64,000 nucleotides of DNA, from NCBI RefSeq assembly GCF_036321535.1, contig NC_087436.1, positions 56,112,001 to 56,176,000 of the forward strand, read 5' to 3'. Positions 1,341 through 53,149 of this stretch are shown here, piece by piece. This stretch comes from Camelus dromedarius (Eukaryota). A program made the position numbers and the translations under genes. The notes beneath the pieces were generated by a model, which saw nothing but the letters and a program-made list of their open reading frames with translations, did not search any database and was not told the origin of the DNA. How positions within the stretch are numbered: position 1 is the stretch's first letter; each line of letters begins with the position of its first letter.

Positions 1341-2873
1341 AAGTTGGGGTTGGGGGACAAAGGGACATTATTATATTTCAGTTATTGCCTACTAAAAAAG
1401 CAATAATTTTAACTTTGCAATTTAATTTTAATTTTTAAAAAATCCATTTTCAGAGCACTTGAAAATTGGTTTCAAAGCAAGTGCCTTTTTTTTCAGAATG
1501 ATGGATTCATACTTCAGGTTGCCTCTTAACACCTGCATGTCCTGGACTCCAACAATAAATCCACCGTATTTATCCCATACTTTCTAATGATTCATCATGG
1601 ACACCCTGCAAGTTTGTCAACTATTAAAGTTGTTTTGGAAATAAGTTGTGACACATGTGATAAGGCTTATTTTAAAAATCAGCATTGCTTTAATGAAAAT
1701 GAGGCATTGAACTTATTAAAACCAGACAATTAACTTAATGAATAGTATGTAAATCATGTCCGGGGACTAGGAAAGTGACTGACACAGAAAAGACTCTCAA
1801 ATATCAACTCAATCAGTGAATAGTCAGTTTAATGTAGTCATTCTGGTTTTTTTTACTGACTTGCTTTTTTGTTTGTTTTTCTTTGAAATCTGTGGGGACT
1901 TGGGGGGAGGTGGGGCACTCCAGGTGTTTGCTATGAATCATCTGTGTTCCCAGCTCCATCTGAGATTTGGTTTCAGAAAGATTAAAGGTAGGAAGCTATA
2001 ATCACTGAAACGATTCCAGTGATTCCTTTTGTCACGTAATTTGAGGATCATTGTCCTATTGTATTTGGACACTTGAACTAAAAAGTTGTGACTCGAAGAA
2101 GTAGGATGTAAGTAAAAAATAGGCTAAGTTGAGACAAATATTAATGGCTAATGAAAGTTTTGTATGCCCAGTATTTAAAAAAAATTTTTACTTGGTACTT
2201 TTACATTTATACTTCTGGCACGCCCTTTAAGAGTTAAATGGGTCTGTGACAACTCAGGCTAAAGTATCAAAAAGATGAGAAAAGAAAGAAATCTTTAGCT
2301 GTGGTGGCCAGGGCTCAGATGGGTTTATAATCAAGGGAGAGGCTTAAGGTTATATGAATTTAATATGAAGAGTAAATATTATTGTACTGAAGATTTGGAC
2401 TTTATTTCCCACTTGTAAAAAAAAAAAAAAGGTCACAATAATCTCCAAAATTCTTTTTCTTTATATTTTCAACATAGTTTTCCAGATCATTCTTTCTCCT
2501 TCATTGCACTATATAACCTCCTTGAAGAAAACGTGTTTAAATTCAAAGGCATTTTACTGAACCTAAAAAATCACTTTAAAATATTAGGTTATGAATTTCT
2601 GCCTGCTCAATTACGAAATGCAAAACAGTTGGGCCTAAGTGCATTAGTTGCTAAGTATTTTCTTTATACTCTGCTTTGTGCCATCAAATGCCAGTTAATT
2701 CAGGTAACACCCGTTGCCTAACAGAATTCCAGTCATTGCTGACAGTCTTCATAGCAAAGCTAGTGGAGTTACAAACTCAACTTGTGTCTCCAGAAACTCA
2801 TAAGCAATCGTGGAGGTGTTGGGAGCAGAGAGTCAACTTTGCAGGAGGGTGGACCCTTAGATGCTTGCCTAGT

Positions 2874-3353
2874 TGTTACTGCATCCAAGCTCACTGCATG
2901 ACAGGCCAGTAAATTGAAGGACAAGTTGCTGGGGCAAAGAATAGTGACTTTATTCAGAAAGCCAGCAGACTGGGAAGATGATGGACTAGTATCCCAAAGA
3001 ATCATCTTCCCTGAGTTAGAATTCAGGCTTCTTTTAGACCAAAAGGGAAGGGGGTAAAGTTGAACATTTCCTGGCTCCAGTCAGACTTCAGAGGGGATGT
3101 GTTAATTTCTTCCTTCCTGCAGCCATTACTGGTGGGCCTGGTCAGGATGTTTCCTGTGAGCGAAACAAAGATATTTTAGCTTAACGCTCATTACATGAGA
3201 GGCAGAGTTCCCAGAGATGGACCATTGTGTATAATTTAAATTTATAGGCAGCATCCCTATAGTGATTAACTTGTAGCAAAAGCAAGAGAACACAGAGGTT
3301 AAAGGAAAAGAAACAGATCCAATATTGAGTCAGATCTGTTCTTCCCTATTACA
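2874..3353 (-). mobile_element. Solo ERV1-class LTR, about 480 bp
   Basis: TG...CA termini (tgttact...tattaca). Reverse-strand AATAAA (tttatt 2949-2954) near the minus-strand 3' end. 4-bp TSD tagt/taat. Resembles laurasiatherian ERV1 LTRs. Confidence 0.8.
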
Positions 3354-18269: not shown

Positions 18270-18480
18270 GTCAACGTCTTTAAGCTCTTTGGGCCTCAAC
18301 TCCCTTATCTGTAAAATGCGCATAATTATAATACGTACCTCACCAAGTATTTATGAAGATTAGATTAGCTGAATATAAACAAAATTAGTTGAATATAAAC
18401 AAAAATTAGTTAAATGTAACAGGTGAAGCACTTAAACAGAGCTTGGCACATAATATCATCATCGTCATCATCATCATTAC
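18270..18480 (+). mobile_element. MIR SINE containing a ~20-bp tandem triplication
   Basis: gggcctcaactcccttatctgtaaaatg core; attag(c/t)tgaatataaacaaa units at 18364-18419. Confidence 0.75.
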
Positions 18481-23791: not shown

Positions 23792-24256
23792 CAGCTCTAT
23801 CCAATAGAACTATACTATACACTGAATATGTAATTTAAAATTTCTTGTAGTCACACCAAAAAAGTAAAAAGAAGCAGTGTTAAAATTATCTTAACATGAT
23901 TTTTAACTCATTATATCTAAAATATCATTTCAATGTGTAATCAATATTTTAAAACTATTAATGAGATATTTTACATTCCCTTTTTTAAATGTCTTTGAAA
24001 TCTAGTGTGTATTTGGTACTCACAGCACATCTTAATTCAGATGCTAAATTTTCATTGGAAGCACCTGATCTGTACTTGAATTCATTAAATTTGCATTTGA
24101 AAAAATAACTTTACATACTTAAGCTGTTCCAGAGATACTTAAATTGTTTTCTTCAATAACTGAATTGAGTATCAGTTCAGTTTGTCAGTTAATTAGCCAA
24201 ATTTCAAGCGATTGATAGCCATGTGGAGCTAGTGGCTACCATAAAGGATAGCACAG
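23792..24256. mobile_element. hAT-Charlie element (Charlie1b/MER33-like)
   Basis: Termini cagctctatccaatag ... gctagtggctaccataaaggatagcacag. Flank ttctagaa fits the Charlie nTCTAGAn target. Confidence 0.8.
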
Positions 24257-32039: not shown

Positions 32040-35000
32040 CAGGTCAGAGAAGATGAGCCTGGAGAAAAGGACTTTACGTTTCCCAAGTGCTGACACCAGA
32101 CTTTGAAATAAGCCAAATTTCGGATTGGCTGGGAAGCCTAGAGACCATATTCTCACTCAGCTTGTCTCGGGCTCCTGAGCTTGTGGGTAGATACTTTAGA
32201 AACCCTAGAGTTTGGGCTTTGATCTTTTCTTCTAGTAACACTGCTACTGACCAGCTGCCCCTACTTACCCCAACACAGACGCTCATACCTATGTTCTAGG
32301 GTTGTGGTCAACAGCCAGTCACTATTAAACTGATAGCATACTAGCATGAGAAGACCCCATTGTCTGAGTATCTTAACAGTCTTGTAAATTTATAGTTTCC
32401 TTTAATGCTTTAGCAGGATTGGGGGGGGTGTTGTTTGTTTTTTAATATCTAGGTACTTGATGTTGCCATTTAGGTGGGTGGTAAGTGTATATGCAATATT
32501 TTACACAGTATTTTCAAATCTCCATTATTGACAGGAAAATACTCAAAATTTAGAAGTATCAAATAATTAAGTTGTACAATTCAATTTGACATTCTAATAT
32601 CTGAGCTTTATACATGTTCTTCAAAATTTAATTACTTTTTGTTAAAGGTCACATTACTCGAGGTTACTATCTCACAGACAGGGATATATGGTGGTGGTGG
32701 TGATGTGTTATTTCTTTTGGGGAAAGTTAAGAAAGGCATGTTTATTTAAAATAAGATAAAATAAGAAGATATAAGAATAGGAACAGAAGCTCCTTCCACT
32801 TCCATTTCGTTCTAGCAGCACGGCACCCACACAGGCCTATTTACAGCAGATCTGTTGTGAACTTCAAGCCATTCAGCACCTTCATGAATAATTTCACAGA
32901 AACATATAATCAACACATCCAGCTCCATGATGTAGCTCTTCAAAGTGGTTCTTATAGAAGCACTATGATGTACAATAATGATGAGTATTCATATTCAGAA
33001 GCAAAGCATACATCTCGTTCTGTGCCTATAAGAAATTCAAGTTGTTCCTTGTTAGAGGATAATGCAGTAAAATTTAAAAAAATATGATTCTAAAATAAAG
33101 AGCTCATTAAAAGTCTATTTATAAACAGTGATGATATTAGGCATTAGAATTTAAAGATGTTGAAATCCTAAGTGTCTTGTTTTTTCTTGTGTACTGAGTT
33201 AAATCCTCTCCCATATAAATTACATGCATAACAAATATTCATTACAATGAGGGTTTAAAATTGATATGGTAAAATTGAACAAAATATGAACTTTCACATT
33301 TCACTTGTCACATGGTTCCCGGGAGAGCAAGCCTTTCTTTAATGAGGTTAAATTAATTAAAGTGGGCTCAGTGCTATTAGCTACATGCAAAATCTGAAGC
33401 TAAATGCTTAATCATAGAAATTAGAGATGATCATTTTAATGAATTCTGAATAGTGTGGTTTTACTCCAGGATATTCACAAAAGGGAGTTGTTTGTCACAC
33501 ATAGAAAGAAAGGTGAGAAAAACAGCATCACAGCAAATCTAGAGATTCAGTTTGCAGGGTTTTATTTTTTAATGACTACTTGTAAGATGTCATCTTAAAG
33601 ATGGTTCCGTAAGGAGTATAAAGGTCTTAGACATCAGGAAAAACAATAATTTGTAATCATACTTATATTAGTGATTTTAAATGTTCTTTATAATGTATTA
33701 TTTATATTCCATCCAAATTTGACCAAGTTAATCAGCCATAAAATACAAATTGATAACCTTGATTTTATTTTAAATAAACTTAAATGTTTTATATTATTTT
33801 AATTATTAAAATCAAAGTAATTTTTAAAATACATTTAAAATACTTGGAAAGAAACTAGATATGTGAATATTGCTCAAATAAAAACTGGTGCATGAGAAGA
33901 TGGGACAAAATATGACTGCTTTCCACTGAAGAGTGTTAAGTCAGCATAGGGCCTAAAAATAGAGTAAGGAACACAGAGAACTGTCAAAACAGAAACTTTA
34001 AAGAGACTGTTTCAGAAATCCTTCCTAAAGGAGGAGGAGCAGAGTGATAAACACAACAAATGCTGTAATAATACTTTTTTTTTTTTTCATCAAGTCACAA
34101 GTCTTTCAGGGACTCCTCACGGCACTGGTACATCTACTGGCCCCATCTACGGACCTTCCCCTAAGAGTGGTTGATGGAACTAACAAGGACAGGAGGCAGC
34201 ACTGCCATCTTGTCACCTCCTTATCTCACGCCTGTGCTCTCTGACTTTCCTTATCACGCCTCAGAAGTGCCAAGTCGTTGTTGCTCTGATGGCTGCTGAG
34301 CACTGATCTACCACCATGTGAAACTAAATCATGTGAAACTAAATCCAAAATTCCACAAGGAATGGGGTCAACCTATCAGTGAAAATAATAGCCCATTTGA
34401 GCGCTTCTTCTTTCTCTGACCGGAAGGCAAGCTCTCCAGAGTCCACTGGGGATATGCCCTAAAAACACTTTGAAAGCTCACACATGTGTGCCGTGATTTT
34501 TTTTTAGAAAGCAGGATACTCTGCTTGGGGAATAGGAAAGCCTCTGCAACAGTGAAAAATGGTAGGAACAGGAAAGATCCGTGAGCTTGTTTGGAGAGGG
34601 TTTTGCATAATTTAATGTTGTTTATGTTTTCTAAGCTTAGATAATTGCTCATTAAAGACTTCAGCAAGTTTATAGAAATAGTGCTTGCTACGTGGTAGTC
34701 ACTGTATGGCATAAACCTATTTTAGCAAATTTTCCGATAGTGCACAGCATGCATCTGTGACTGAGACAAAAATCAATGCTTATGGATTTAGCAGTGTAAT
34801 CCTATCACTTGTTCTGTGAGATATGATTTGAAATGTAAAGTACGTTAAGACTTAAGTGAACTTGGAGGGATGGAGTCTCTGGGGTGTTTCTTAGTATCCT
34901 ATTTATTATTGATCAGCCTATTTCTTTATTGTCTCTTTTCTCCTGGCCCCAGTTATCCTTCTTCCCCTATTCACCAATAGCTTTTAAATTATGTGTTCCA

Positions 35001-35113: not shown

Positions 35114-35739
<626 letters not shown>

Positions 35740-38499
35740 TTAAAACAAAAATACTAGTAAAATATTAGGCGACGTTTCTGAGTTTTACCAAGACATTTTA
35801 GTGTTTTCTCTAGAAACAAAACACAGTGAGTCAGCTATTTTTAAGTATCTTAATACTTAAATAACTCTAAAGTATTGTGTTTTGTATTTACGGAAAGTCC
35901 TGAATGTAAAATTTGAGAAATTGTGGGTTATAATCTAATTAAGATTTTAAAAATTAGTTGCTTACCCTCAAACTTACTATGAAAGAACAACTAAATCAGT
36001 TTGAAATAATCATAGCTACCTGGAGTCATCCATTCATTCATTTATTCATTCCAGAAATAACTGTGGGAGACCCGGGATGTGCCAGCCACCCACAGGAACT
36101 GGAACGAAGTCTCCACCTGTTGTAATGATCATAGTCTAGTGATTCCTGATAAGCTCTGTAGTGGCTGTTACTAACTGCAATTTACAAAACCCATGTTTGT
36201 TTGTACATGCAAAAAGTTTGGCTTTCTTTTAGCTCCTGAAACGATCATCAGCCATAATTGCCTTAGGGCATCAAGAAAATGTTTACAGTTACATAGGCTC
36301 TCATCAGTACTCTAACCTGATTTGAGATAAAATTCTGCCCAGTTTAATAAAATACTCCTCCCATTAATAGATTATATCTCTGGGTATCTGAGTTTTAGTC
36401 CCTGTTCTGAAAGTGGGTTATACTTTCTGTTTACTGTATTCTTCTGATGTGGATGATTCATCTGCAAACTAACCTGAATTCTAGAAGCTATAGTTTTCAT
36501 CTTGGGCAGCATGCTCTTCATGTGGGGAAGAGCACGAACTGCCAATAGACATTAGGCCATTCTCTGCATAAACTACTAAATCTTGAGTTTAGGCGGCTTT
36601 CGGATGCAGATAAAAGAAGTGAAAGAATATAAGAAAAGAATATAAGTTTCCATGTAAAATAAGACATGAGTGAAAATCATTCAAAACACTGCTGTCCAGA
36701 CTCTGTGTGTGAAAATAATTTTGAGGGAAAAACCTGTCCTATTGGTGTGAGCTTTTCTTGCTTGGATGCATGTATATATGTTTAAAGCTTCCCACTTAGT
36801 GGGAAGGAATCCTTCTGAATTCTGTGAACTCTATGGATAGTATTTGCTTACACATGCAGTCTGAGTCTTTTAAAAGTTATTTTGTCTTTAAAAGAGCAAA
36901 TCCACAGAATGACCTTCAGCTACTATTAATCCATCTAAATGTAGGGCATGAAGGCAAAACACATCTGCCATCTGTCAGCTGAGAATTCCCCTGCCACCAC
37001 CCCGACCCCCACTCCCCACGAAGTCCTCTTGGGGATACGATAACGTAGGGAGGGGTCTTTCTTTGCTGGCAAGGAAAGAGTACATTTAGACTAATCATTA
37101 AAATCCATTACCTAACAAAGTGCATGTTCTCAAGGAACACAGTGATACTTGCCAATGAATTAATCAGCAAACTAGACTATGAGAAGGTGAGATTAGCAGT
37201 CTCAGAAAAGATCAGAATCCATGAGATGCCAAAGCAGTCTCTAGTAGCCATAAATCTTAGCCCAATTAGAGGGATTTTCTCTTAGCAATTTAGAATTCTA
37301 TCTGGATTTGGTCTCTTTGTTGCTCCACACTGAGTTTTATATCTGAGGCTGGAACAATGACCAGCGCTTTCCTGGAGCTTGATAGGGAGAATCATTTATT
37401 TGAATAATTGATCATTCAATTAGTAGAGCAAATGTTGAACAGTTGGACAGCTCTTTTTATCAGTGTTGATGGGAAGTAATTGGCTGTAGTTCATTATAAA
37501 GCAGAAAATTGAAAAGTGTGATTTTAAAATAAGAATATTAAATATAGCCTTCCCCTCACAATAAAACCTTCATACCTGCTCCTTTTGCCATAGCTGTTTG
37601 ATTTTCTTTTCCCTCAGTGTTACTATATTCCAAAATATAGTCAAGCAACTGATTACATTCCCTGAATATTACTGAATAGTGATTTGCATATACAGAGTGT
37701 GTCTAATGTTAACTAATTCTGTAGAGTTGGGGCCTATGAGTGGAGAATGATATTAGCACTTAATTGGGTTTAAAATACCAGAGAAAGGGCAGGCAACCCA
37801 AACTGTTGTCTAGGGGCCTGAGGATACCCTTGGTCTATGCTGACCGTCCACTCAATTTGTAGGAAGAAGGTATATTTTCAAGAAAAATATATACATCTTA
37901 AATGGTCAAATTTGAATTTGTAACAGTAATAGATGGATGCATGGTATGTTAGGGACAATAACATTGCTTTGTCTTGAAAGTAATTTGAAAATACTCAATC
38001 AAGGAAAACCCTGTATAATTGCAACCTATACTTTTTTTTGTTGTTAAGTTTAATCTATTATCAAAAGACTGTAATTTGACTTAGAATGATACACTCATAA
38101 CTCAGTTTTCATAATAAAAAATGTAAAAACCATATTTTGTTTAAAAAAAGAGGAAACTTTTAAAGGTGTAAATGATTTCTGATTCTTGAACTGACCCTGT
38201 TTTAAACCAACATAAGTATTGATACATGAGCATATCTACTTGTTCATATAGACATGGGAACAATTTTAATATTTAAAAACAATATATTTCCTTCTAGTTT
38301 CTGATATCTTCTAACCTACTTCTTAGAGTAGAAACTGTGAATCACCTTATAGCAAGCATATTTCACTGAAAAAGCATGTGTATGTGTTTGTGTACGTATA
38401 TATGAGCTATATTTCTATGTCAAGGGCAAAATTTTAAAAAGATATACCTTTGTATCAAGGGCATTAATAAAAATGAATTAATCAATCAAATATCATTTA

Positions 38500-39520
38500 T
38501 GTTTATTCTGGTTACTTAAAAAACATTTTATTTAAGAAATAGTAAATAATATATTACAACTATGGAATGTAAATAGTGAACACTTTTAATAGTGAACACT
38601 CTTATTTCATTCCTGGATTTTAAAAGATTCAGAACATTGCTTTTCATTTTAAAACAGGACTTTGCTATTTGAAAATTGTCCTTCTAATCTTTTTTTCAAT
38701 GGTTTTATTGAGGATAAGTGTTAAAAGTTATCAAATACCTTTTTGCCTTGAATTAATTATATATTTTGGTTGCTGTGTTATATTAACATATTTTCTTTGT
38801 AACAATGACCTCTGCATTGCTACTGCTACTGTTTCTTCTTCACTGCAGAAAAAATATGTACAAGTCTCTTGATAATGGTTTCTTCTAAAATAACCCATTG
38901 TTTTGGGTTTTTTTTCACCCTTTTTGGGAGTGTGGAAAATTTATTTTCCTGTGAAGCTAAAGAATCTTAAAGGTGTTTTGGTAATGAATTTTTTCTGGTT
39001 AATTTTGACTAAATTTTAAAATATTTTCTTCAATTATTCCTTAATAACCAATTCTAATTCATTTTTATGTTGATTCAGAATCCTGATTATTTACTCTCTA
39101 TGTCTGTCATCTTCTCTCACCTTTTTCTTAATTTAACTTTTCATTTGCTCATCCACTTCCTACTTAAATGTTAATTCAGAGTCAGCTGTGTGATGAGCCA
39201 CTACACAGGGTGAATGAAGGAATGACAAAAAGGATAAAATATTCACTTCCCAGTCTCTGTTAAATATTTTCAGTGTATATAACTCCAATCTATGTTGTTT
39301 TCCATGTCACTTCTACTATTTAATACTTGAAGTGCTAATTTAAATATCCAGTATTACAATTTAGCCTACTGTATCATTGTAATTTAACTCCCATGACATT
39401 TTTAACTTCCTTATAATTAATAATGTGATCTGTTTCTAAACCCTGCATTTACTTTCTATGATCTCTGACTGTGTTTGATTTCCATACTTTTCTGCTTCCT
39501 TCTTTCCTTGTTGTATAGAA
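38500..39520 (-). mobile_element. Highly degraded L1M fragments
   Basis: T-rich sequence with aatagtgaacactcttatttcattcctggattt and ttgaggataagtgttaaa motifs typical of antisense old L1 ORF2. Confidence 0.5.
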
Positions 39521-48574: not shown

Positions 48575-48880
48575 TGCAAGTGTCCAATAAAAATGTATTA
48601 TGACCACAAGTGAAATTTTAAATTTCTAGTAGCTGTGTTAAAAAATAAAAAGAAACAAGTAAAATTAACTTTAATAACATATAGTCTAATATATCTAAAA
48701 TATGATTATTTTAACATATTTTCAATCTTAAAACATTATTAATGAGACATTTTATCTTTGTGTGTGTGTGCACACACATGTGTGCTAAGCCTTTGAAATC
48801 CACTGTGTGTTTTATACTTACACCACTTCTCAGCTTGGCCCAACCACATTTCAAGTGCCCAGCAGCCACATGTGGCTAGT
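48575..48880. mobile_element. MER33-like hAT-Charlie MITE
   Basis: tgtccaataaaaatg...aaatttctagtagc...cacatttcaagtgcccagcagccacatgtggctagt. Homologous to 23792-24256. Confidence 0.8.
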
Positions 48881-49185: not shown

Positions 49186-49685
49186 CTGCTGTCTAATACA
49201 TAATCCTAGAGACACTGAATAATTAAGAACTTAAAATATTGCAAAGATGACTAAGAAATTCTTCATTTTATTCAATTTTCATTAATTTAAATTTAAAACT
49301 GATCCTGGAGTCAGTTCCTAGAAAATGTTTAAGTATGTTTGGATATTTTGGGTTTGTGAATCTATTATAGTCATTGAAGTCCAAGGTTTACGAAAACCAA
49401 ATTCAAAGCAAGTAATTCTAGTGAAAATTTCTCTCTCAAATTGAGATCACAGAAATTTTAAATAAAATACATACTAGATTTCATAGGCTTAGTACAAGAA
49501 AAAAATGTAAAATATCAATAAATTTTTATGTTGACTGTTACAGTGATTATTTTTGATATATTGGGTTAAATAAAACATTATTAAAACTAAGTTCATTTGT
49601 TTTTTTTTTACTTTTTGTAATATGACTACTGGAAAATTTTAAATTGCCTATGTGGTTTGTATTATATTTGTATTGGGTAGTTCTG
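49186..49685. mobile_element. Charlie1-like hAT element, inverted relative to 48575-48880
   Basis: ctgctgtctaatac ... tgactactggaaaattttaaattgcctatgtgg...tattgggtagttctg is the reverse complement of the MER33 left arm. Confidence 0.75.
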
Positions 49686-49756
49686 GCTTAGGTCTTTACA
49701 CTTACCAGAGCTTTAGGAATGTCTCCAGCACTTGGTTTGAAGAGTAATGGCTGAGA

Positions 49757-50042
49757 CAGGGGGAAGGGGAGTGGGAAGGGATAAACTGAGAGTTCGAGAT
49801 TTGCAGATACTGGCTAGTATGTATAAAATAGACAAACAAGTTTATACTGTATAGCACAGGGAAATATATTCAACATCTTGTAGTAGCTCACTGTGAAAAA
49901 GAATATGAAAATGAATATATGTATATTCATGTATGACTGAAGAATTGTGCTGTACCCCAGAAATTGACACAACATTATAAACTGACTATAACTCAATAAA
50001 AAAAAGAAAAAAAAGAAGGTTTAAAAATAACAACAACAGAAA
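49757..50042 (+). mobile_element. 5'-truncated young LINE-1 3' UTR, camelid/artiodactyl type
   Basis: Typical L1 end: gggaagggataaactgagagttcgagatttgcagatac...actgtatagcacagggaaatatattcaa...aactgactataactcaataaa plus an A-rich tail. A 17-bp TSD with 1 mismatch: aagagtaatggctgaga (49740-49756) / aagagaaatggctgaga (50043-50059). Confidence 0.92.
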
Positions 50043-50868
50043 AAGAGAAATGGCTGAGAATAGGACACATTCCTGAAATCTATAAATCATAACTGGTTTA
50101 CAGGTGGCCCCTTGAAAAAGTCAAAGGGTTTAATGAAGTACATCATAAATAAACATTAGCAGTCATCAGAGCTGGCCTACCTTTCATCATATTACTTTGT
50201 GAAATGTTCTTGCCTCTTCTGTTTCTGGTTTGTTTTTTTTTTTTTTTTTAATGTGTTCATGTTTTAAAATCAATTAATAATTCTTACCAATTCCATAAAA
50301 TGACCTGAAGTATAGTAGTAACTCTGTATTTTGTTAAGTGTTTTGAAATTAATAGTTAAAAAAAAGGATACTATAAAAACACAAGTTGTTTTTCTTACAT
50401 TCTATGGGTAAAGGGAAAAAACATAGACTTATTATCTTATTTAATTTGCTTTTCCAAATACCTCAGTGTTCAATTGAACTACTCAGTTATGATGTATTAT
50501 AATTTCATACATCACAGATAACTAGATTTGATGTTATTTTAGACGTCAAAATATTTTTAAGTCATGAAAGAGGTATTCATACACGAGGTTGAACAGGCTG
50601 TCAGCACACCAGAGGCTAATTTAAACTGTGTCTGGGTTATTTTCATGGGCTCTAATGCTTCTGTGAAAGCATCTATTCAATGCACCATATCTGTCTTTCA
50701 TCAGAATGAATTTGTCAGCCATTTCTAGGGAAGATAATATAAAATAATTTTCTGAATGTACTATTTGTATTCCATTGCTAACACAATCTACAAACATCTC
50801 CTTAGATACAAGCTGGTCAATTCAAAAAGAATTTCTTAATCACCTACTATGAGCCAAGTCTGGTAGGC

Positions 50869-50960
50869 TTCATGTATGACTGAAGAATTGTGCTGTACCC
50901 CAGAAATTGACACAACATTATAAACTGACTATAACTCAATAAAAAAAAGAAAAAAAAGAA
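50869..50960 (+). repeat. Exact 92-bp second copy of the L1 3' end at 49926-50017
   Basis: Base-for-base identical from ttcatgtatgactgaagaattg to ctcaataaaaaaaagaaaaaaaagaa. No TSD. Confidence 0.95.
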
Positions 50961-51264
50961 CCATTTCCTTGAAGCAACTAAAATCTACATGAATCATTTG
51001 AATTAACCTCTGTGAAAAGTTTAAGCAACAGAACAAAGAAAAATAATATTAAATTAGTATTTTGTATGATGTTCAAAAGTTTGGATATAATCAGGAAAAC
51101 ATAATCTTAGCATATTCTAGTTTTCTTGGAATTACCAGCAAGATTTGTGAGGAAAGGAGATCAAAATTTTAGAAGATAAGTATAGATATTTAATATACAG
51201 AATGTTTAGAAATCTAATATTTAAATTCAAATAAAATTGCAAAAGTCAGAGTGTTAAAAAGGAC

Positions 51265-51470
51265 AGGAGAATAAGTGAGTAGATCCATATTCGAGTTCTG
51301 ACCTACCATTGAGCAGAAGCATGACTTGGGCATATAACATCACATTAAAATGTGGATTCATAAACCTGTCCCTTCATGATCTTACAGGGTCTTAGTTGAG
51401 ATCAAGTAAAATAGGTTTCTGAAGGGTTTTTTCCTGACCTTTAAATGACTAGTCAAATACAAGGCATTAT
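51265..51470 (+). mobile_element. MIR SINE
   Basis: ttcgagttctgacctaccatt...atgacttgggca...cttacaggg...gagatcaagtaaaata. Confidence 0.6.
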
Positions 51471-51744
51471 CACTAACCTAACTTCCTGAATTTCTTTGAA
51501 GGTTTATAATGTGCCTCTGCTTTCTTCAGCTGTTTGTAGACCTGATATCATTGCAAATTATACTTAGGCACAAGTAGAAGTGTTTAGTCATAAACTGCCT
51601 GACAAAGAAAAGTTATTTTAAAATAACAAGCTCAGTGTTCAGCTCTGCTGTTTCATGTGGCAAAAATAAGCTTAACAATGAAAAACTACAAAGTTAGGTT
51701 TGACTGGGTGTAATCAGAAGATCACAGAAGGTTTTAATATGGAA

Positions 51745-51964
51745 CAGTAGTCGTCCGTAGAACAACCTGGGGTTTGGGGCATTGGCCCTCCGCACAGCCG
51801 AAAACCCGAGAGTAACTGATAGTTGGCCTTCTGGGCCCGTGGTTCCTCTGACCCGTGGAGCCAACCAACTGCAGATCATGTAGTGCTGTACTCTTTGCTT
51901 CTGAAAAAAATCTGTGTAAGGTGGACTTGTGCCGTTCAAACCATTATTGTTTGAAGGTCAATTG
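51745..51964. mobile_element. Tigger2-derived MITE (Tigger2a_Art/MER8-like, TcMar)
   Basis: Degenerate TIRs cagtagtcgtccgtagaacaac ... ttgtttgaaggtcaattg followed by TA. Internal caaccaactgcagatcatgtagtgctgta...gaaaaaaatctgtgtaaggtggac. Confidence 0.8.
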
Positions 51965-53149
51965 TACTTTACAAATTATTTTACAATTAGGTTTCCAGCT
52001 AGCGTTTTATTTTAACAAATGTCCTACCAGTAATAGCTTCTTGTTACATTTTATAATGAACTATATGACTTGTTTAGTATTTAACTTTTTGTTTAAATGG
52101 GAGATTTTAGACTATGAAGCAATTTCTCAAGACTTAGAAGAATCCAGGAAGAAGTCAGGACTTTAACCGTGTTGCCTTTGTTATTGTTGGACACGCTGCA
52201 CAGTTTAGACTCTTCAGCAAATTTAAGGTAAAAGGATATTGCAACTCATTCATCTCTTGTAATAAACTTGGGGTGAAATACAACTTGTAAGTTGATTAGC
52301 ATTTTCAGCGTCACCTATATCTTATAAAATAATGCTTACTTTGACTTCATTTCTTTATTAAAAAGCATAAGCTTGTACCTTTTCTCTTTTGAAAAGTAGG
52401 TAACTCCAGGCCCTTTTTTGAAAGGATGGTGGATTTGCAGCATCTGCTGCATGATATTCTACACAACCAAATTTAATTTCTCTTTAAATGAAAGTAAAAA
52501 ACATAGATTATTGCTTATAATTTGGACATGACAGAACTGCTTCTCAGGACATTCCTTAGAGTGGAGGAATGTTGGGGGGAAAGTTACTTGGTACATTATA
52601 GGTAAGTCCTGGATTAGAATAACGATACTGCCCTGTGGATGAGTCTCAGAGCTCAGATCTCTGGAAATTACCAGTTATCCCAGGCAACCTGGTCGTGTTT
52701 TTGCACTTACCTTTCATGTTGTTTATTCTCAATTTTTCATATGCATTGGTGTTTGAGGCATGTGGAGTTTCAACTTTATGTTTATTAGATATAGATCTGT
52801 GTTTGAAAAGATCACTTGACATTTCAGCATGTATTTTGAGTGTTGAGAACACTTTTAAATATGGCATGAGCCATTAGAAGTAGCATTAGTAGAAAGTAGA
52901 AATCAAATCTTCAAACAGCATTATGAAATAAAATTTTCGATGAGGATGTGCCTGTAAAAGCTAAGTACAGTACTATTTCTGTTAGAAAATTGAAAGAATA
53001 AATTATGCTTTATTTTGTTTTGTTTATACTGAACTGCGCTAGATAAAGATTTTGGCAATGCTCAGGAAAATGCATAAACCACAATGAATAAGATAAATCA
53101 TAGAGGAAGTTGGTAAGGCAGGAAAATCATCAAGGCTATGATGATAATG

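Follow-up and report, generated by a model that had tools for sequence, protein, structure and literature searches.

The 92-bp segment at 50869-50960 of the window (the whole 64-kb stretch of DNA that was analysed) is an exact copy of 49926-50017, and we consider it probably a repair-mediated local duplication ('doublet') that was templated on the end of the neighbouring retroposon. Both copies lie on one strand in direct orientation with a start-to-start spacing of 943 bp, and the exact-repeat search agrees in this with the first-pass annotation, which had placed an identical copy 943 bp downstream of an L1 end. A repair copy is favoured since the exact repeat is unique, the pattern of its tail occurs only at the two copies and the downstream copy carries no target site duplication (TSD). 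In addition, no TT/AAAA-type target is found at its junctions as they stand, and its size and spacing lie inside the published range. In the following the upstream copy is called the donor and the downstream copy the acceptor.

Table 1. Positions of the donor element, the acceptor copy and its flanks in the window.
Feature	Position	Strand	Method
Acceptor, 92-bp exact copy of the donor 3' end	50869..50960	+	exact-repeat search
Donor stretch, same letters as the acceptor	49926..50017	+	exact-repeat search
Donor element, 5'-truncated retroposon, 286 nt between its TSDs, with G-rich tract, AATAAA at 49995 and A-rich tail	49757..50042	+	
TSD of the donor element, 5' copy, 17 bp	49740..49756	+	
TSD of the donor element, 3' copy, one mismatch	50043..50059	+	
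25 nt that separate patterned tail and 3' TSD, absent from the acceptor	50018..50042	+	
G-quadruplex-type motif at the 5' edge of the donor element, one of three such motifs in the window	49759..49780	+	
Left flank of the acceptor, old L2-like 3' end, reversed	50815..50868	-	profile and pairwise tests
Right flank of the acceptor, possible continuation of the same L2, no statistical support	50961..50995	-	profile and co-linear tests

Exact repeats of at least 18 bp were searched for in the whole 64-kb window on both strands. Of the 16 rows obtained, the 92-mer is the longest and the only exact repeat above 24 bp in the window, whereas the remaining 15 rows are at most 24 bp long and of low complexity, the next longest being homopolymer or dinucleotide runs. 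Within the window the donor is the sole other copy of the acceptor. The acceptor consists of 72 nt followed by the interrupted tail A8-G-A8-G-AA, with an AATAAA at 50938. This tail had been annotated in both copies; its runs were recounted, and the pattern A7-9 G A7-9 G, searched on both strands of the window, is confined to donor and acceptor. Comparison of the sequences flanking donor and acceptor gives 6/20 and 5/20 matching bases, which corresponds to background, and the identity ends sharply on both sides. No filler is visible at the acceptor, as the identity to the donor extends from junction to junction. Between the two copies lies a T-rich tract (50230-50257) whose 28 nt show 86% complementarity to either tail; it is of low complexity, and the complementarity is probably due to chance.

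The donor stretch is part of a longer element, which is assigned to the retroposons by its anatomy, namely a G-rich tract, an AATAAA, an A-tail and a 17-bp TSD. The TSD with its single mismatch was recovered as annotated. We presume the element to be an L1 3' UTR. The acceptor stops 25 nt before the 3' TSD of the donor, and the copy therefore represents an inner segment of the donor locus; the uncopied 25 nt may represent a decayed tail or 3' transduced sequence. An alternative parse of the donor TSD, which takes in a GGTTT that precedes the 5' TSD and also follows the tail, was rejected as the ungapped extension fails, and in our reading it would worsen the endonuclease site. Three related stretches with about 70% identity were seen at 23797-24014, 49465-49680 and 48611-48754, one of them inverted and two located just upstream of the donor element. 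They resemble old DNA-transposon relics, probably of the MER5 type.

At the acceptor no TSD was detected. The longest word common to the 40-nt flanks has 5 nt and lies away from the junctions, and a shifted search, in which bases of the tail or the insert were allowed to count, gave no TSD of at least 7 nt. Both searches thus agree with the earlier description of the second copy as lacking a TSD. The left and right flanks were also compared as a decayed TSD, and this candidate was rejected (p=0.61). The junction flanks as they stand contain no TT/AAAA-type target, where it should be considered that the A's of the tail could mask target bases.

The first-pass annotation had placed the insert inside a reversed L2 that seemed to lack about 30 bp. 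For the tests of this claim L2-like 3' ends chosen by eye within the window served as references instead of a consensus. The left flank was compared with 12 hand-picked L2-like copies and reached p<0.05 against shuffles for 6/12. With a profile built from five seeds it was the best of nine non-seed matches (E=0.012), and with a 12-seed profile the search of the window gave it only E=2. The right flank had no match in the profile searches of the window, and in a co-linear test, in which it was constrained to lie downstream, 1/12 copies reached p<0.05 (combined p=0.35). The spacers in this test ranged from -1 to 71 nt with a median of 29, and the search range could yield such values by chance. 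When the right flank was compared pairwise without this constraint, the combined p was 0.019, a result that was discarded because the inferred spacer was negative in 10/12 copies. The L2-like character of the left flank is partly supported, the continuation on the right is not confirmed, and with the co-linear result the loss of about 30 bp of L2 is not established. Judged from the similarity of the left flank, the acceptor site is probably an old L2, a name that we assume for the flanking repeat. In so old a repeat an indel could predate the copy event, and a loss of about 30 bp is not datable to it. If real, such a loss would exceed the deletions of 1-15 nt given in Table 1 of PMC2671141.

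The absence of differences over 92 bp limits the divergence of the two copies to 3.2% (95% bound), which corresponds to 3-15 million years at rates of 5 to 1.1 x 10^-9 per site per year, the ends of this range being partly our own bracket. Of these rates, 5 x 10^-9 was derived from figures in PMC8605555, and a value of 2.2 x 10^-9 is given in PMC2671141. The copy had been called recent, which is justified as a divergence under about 3.2% but not beyond this, as the time range depends on the rate. The mismatch in the donor TSD had moreover been mentioned in a way that implies an older donor. However, one mismatch in 17 bp does not differ significantly from none in 92 bp (Fisher p=0.16), so that the ages cannot be separated.

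As a possible course of events, a break or a stalled fork in the germline would have opened within the old L2-like sequence. A free 3' end could then have annealed by a few bases of microhomology about 0.9 kb upstream, either on the sister chromatid, on the homologue or on the same molecule, and 92 nt would have been synthesised off the upstream locus, with DNA and not RNA as presumed template. Finally the strand would have come off its template and been joined to the second end, where some bases were probably lost. In such a process the A-tail at the acceptor would be inherited from the template, and no reverse transcription of an RNA at the site would be needed. A polymerase-theta-type route had also been proposed; nothing in the window singles out this polymerase. 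Templated insertions by polymerase theta, as reported by Schimmel and colleagues in 2019, are like the window copy in being locally templated inserts at a repaired break, and the inserts are said to be mostly much shorter, with templates closer to the break. The doublets described by Thomas and colleagues in 2004 are reportedly short identical or near-identical pairs of less than 100 bp at close range. In contrast to these, the donor in the window can be distinguished from the acceptor as it lies inside a TSD-flanked element.

The class to which the copy is best compared are the repair-mediated duplications (RDs; Pace, Sen, Batzer and Feschotte, 2009, PMC2671141). They are defined by an insert of 50 bp or more, whose donor lies at a distance of 50 bp to 5 kb, and by an interrupted older repeat, the halves of which continue within +/-30 bp of the consensus. 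The donor had to be the reciprocal best match and the single other copy in the genome, an operational filter that excludes repeat donors. Among the human duplicons 824/1,136 fall within 5 kb with a mean spacing or apparent peak of about 1.2 kb, and the median length is 147 bp at a detection floor of 50 bp. Seven human cases are identical pairs, and one of ten tested human-specific cases was polymorphic. The breakpoints show microhomology of 2-9 nt, small deletions and filler. For cow and dog 202 and 192 RDs are reported, respectively, and from the cow rate of 0.20 RDs per Mb of repeat DNA about 140 are expected for a 2-Gb genome with 35% repeats (all PMC2671141, except for the last estimate, which is ours).

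The window copy resembles the RDs in size and distance (92 bp, donor 943 bp away), in the lack of a retrotransposition-type TSD and in the identity of the pair, which is also seen among RDs. Of an interrupted older repeat the left half has some support in the tests, and the right half is not significant. In contrast to the RDs, a retroposon end serves as the donor here, a kind of donor left out by the published pipeline, and the acceptor ends in an A-tail, the same as that of the donor, whereas a poly(A/T) tract was present in 0/39 sampled proximal acceptors, from which repeat donors had been filtered out beforehand (PMC2671141). According to the authors duplications of part of a repeat were systematically excluded. 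As donors derived from repeats did not enter the pipeline, the window copy corresponds to an anticipated but uncounted subclass that mimics an L1 insertion, and the locus offers a clean example of it. Insertion of a patch templated on the neighbouring L1 during break repair, as first suggested, stands as the best explanation and matches a described class (PMC2671141), whereas the deletion, the relative age, the recency and the role of polymerase theta that came with this suggestion are weaker. In literature searches, which were not directed at this locus, no paper on such duplications in camelids was found; the available parts of PMC8605555 and PMC6675863 give camelid repeat counts without subfamily sequence.

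Other origins of the acceptor have to be weighed against a repair copy. For a classical L1 insertion by TPRT the 3' poly(A) signal and the tail are present, but the required TSD is not. Non-classical, endonuclease-independent L1 insertions (Sen et al., 2007, PMC1920257) are 3'-truncated, RNA-templated and devoid of a poly(A) tail. Like these and like L1 insertion-mediated deletions, the acceptor is an L1-like fragment without TSD and possibly with a target deletion; however, it keeps its tail, and an identical neighbour is no defining trait of the class. Templated sequence insertion polymorphisms of class 2 (TSIPs; Onozawa and Aplan, 2016, PMC5110952) likewise patch a break and leave no L1-type hallmarks there, but they derive from a distant template, whereas here the identical template is found 943 bp away. 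An independent RNA-templated insertion accompanied by a target-site deletion, starting from a sibling L1 with the same source element or from a local transcript that reads through the donor and is primed internally at the A-rich tail, would explain the AATAAA and the A-tail at the 3' end of the acceptor. Target DNA is deleted in about 2% of human-specific TPRT insertions (PMC1920257), about 350,000 L1 fragments are listed for camelid genomes (table in PMC8605555) and RNA-derived repair patches are known (PMC5110952). Nevertheless, we judge this origin distinctly improbable, as several conditions would have to coincide: closeness to the donor, the same strand, identity over 72 bases, a tail of the same pattern and the loss of the TSD. 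Furthermore, the poly(A) tail was absent from 21/21 non-classical L1 insertions, which was a selection criterion there (PMC1920257), and TSIP patches originate at distant sites (PMC5110952). A local transcript and DNA as template are indistinguishable by sequence alone.

Insertion of the retroposon and copying of its end could also have been one event, in which the fresh cDNA or the new strand patched a second break 0.85 kb away. The inseparable ages of the two (0/92 versus 1/17, p=0.16) would agree with this, as would the facts that the L1 endonuclease makes breaks and that duplication rates follow L1 activity in primates (PMC2671141). We regard it as highly improbable, since direct support is lacking, no endonuclease-type target is seen at the acceptor junctions and two sequential events need no special coincidence. 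Even less credible is gene conversion, in which 50869 already held an older and independent piece of a retroposon, the sequence of which was then converted to that of the neighbour. It accounts for the perfect identity of the neighbours, but no unconverted residue is left in the flanks, which are at background (6/20 and 5/20), and a fragment without TSD has still to be presupposed. Going beyond the single locus, DNA repair may in general copy retroposon 3' ends with their tails to nearby sites, no retrotransposition being involved, and the element itself may provide the trigger; we consider this rather unlikely. The trigger could possibly be the insertion event as such or fork stalling at the G-quadruplex tract of the element, and the G-quadruplex-type motif that the donor carries at its 5' edge is the sole, speculative hint to such element-triggered copying. 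If true, copies of this kind would pass for TSD-less L1 insertions with deletion, and some of the cases classed as 'L1 insertion-mediated deletion' would be local repair copies.

An assembly or polishing artefact, which would have put the 92-mer in place of about 30 bp of true sequence or imposed the neighbour's reads on a diverged second fragment, would yield perfect identity as well. It appears improbable, as no other such repeat occurs in the 64 kb, the window contains no N and 92 bp is below the typical read length. The region 50060-52400 was compared with sequencing runs using 242 sampled words, and 24 runs were listed, ranked by best share, a ranking that carries no information on allele frequency. 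Among the runs listed 20/24 hold the stretch, 19 of them at a share of 0.99 and one at 0.98. These 20 runs belong to nine studies and two organism labels, and 14 are marked as possible sources; all six that are not so marked (three studies) have a share of 0.99. The other 4/24 listed runs are small, have a share of 0.00 and provide no evidence of an empty allele.

Junction-specific words make up 60/2,311 of the possible words, so that complete absence of the junctions predicts about 6.3 missing sampled words or a share of about 0.974, yet 19/20 listed holders are at 0.99. A share of 0.99 corresponds to 2-3/242 missing words, and the probability of at most three missing words with absent junctions is 0.11 if sampling is random. 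In favour of an artefact, no listed run attains a share of 1.00, every listed holder misses at least two sampled words and the 2-3 lacking words may come from the junctions. In the making of the run contigs (Logan) isolated short contigs alone were discarded (PMC12424806), so that words from within the repeat should have been kept. Taken together, word-sharing leans mildly to real junctions.

Metagenome contigs were also searched for family copies with a 20-nt stretch of the window. Two matches in one contig were obtained, with the similarity confined to 23 nt, and were taken as chance. The two matched loci are near-identical reverse complements within this 5.6-kb contig, which suggests a fold-back or low-quality assembly unrelated to the window.

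The copy is a single event of 92 bp in non-coding DNA, is most likely neutral and belongs to a class with hundreds of members per mammalian genome. For repeat annotation it calls for caution, as an A-tailed fragment without TSD need not stem from retrotransposition. If the copy is segregating, it could serve as a simple presence/absence marker.

Elsewhere in the window, an intronless acyl carrier protein frame was found at 35272-35739 on the minus strand (Pfam PP-binding, PF00550, E=3e-9). Its C-terminal part is open while the N-terminal part looks disrupted, and we take the frame to be a processed copy of NDUFAB1. By eye, 2769-3352 on the minus strand reads like a solo LTR of retroviral type. 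Short side-by-side duplications at 34315-34345, 36622-36646, 38572-38604 and 18364-18419 have periods of 15, 13, 16 and 20, respectively; two of them are perfect, and all are ordinary tandem-duplication indels.
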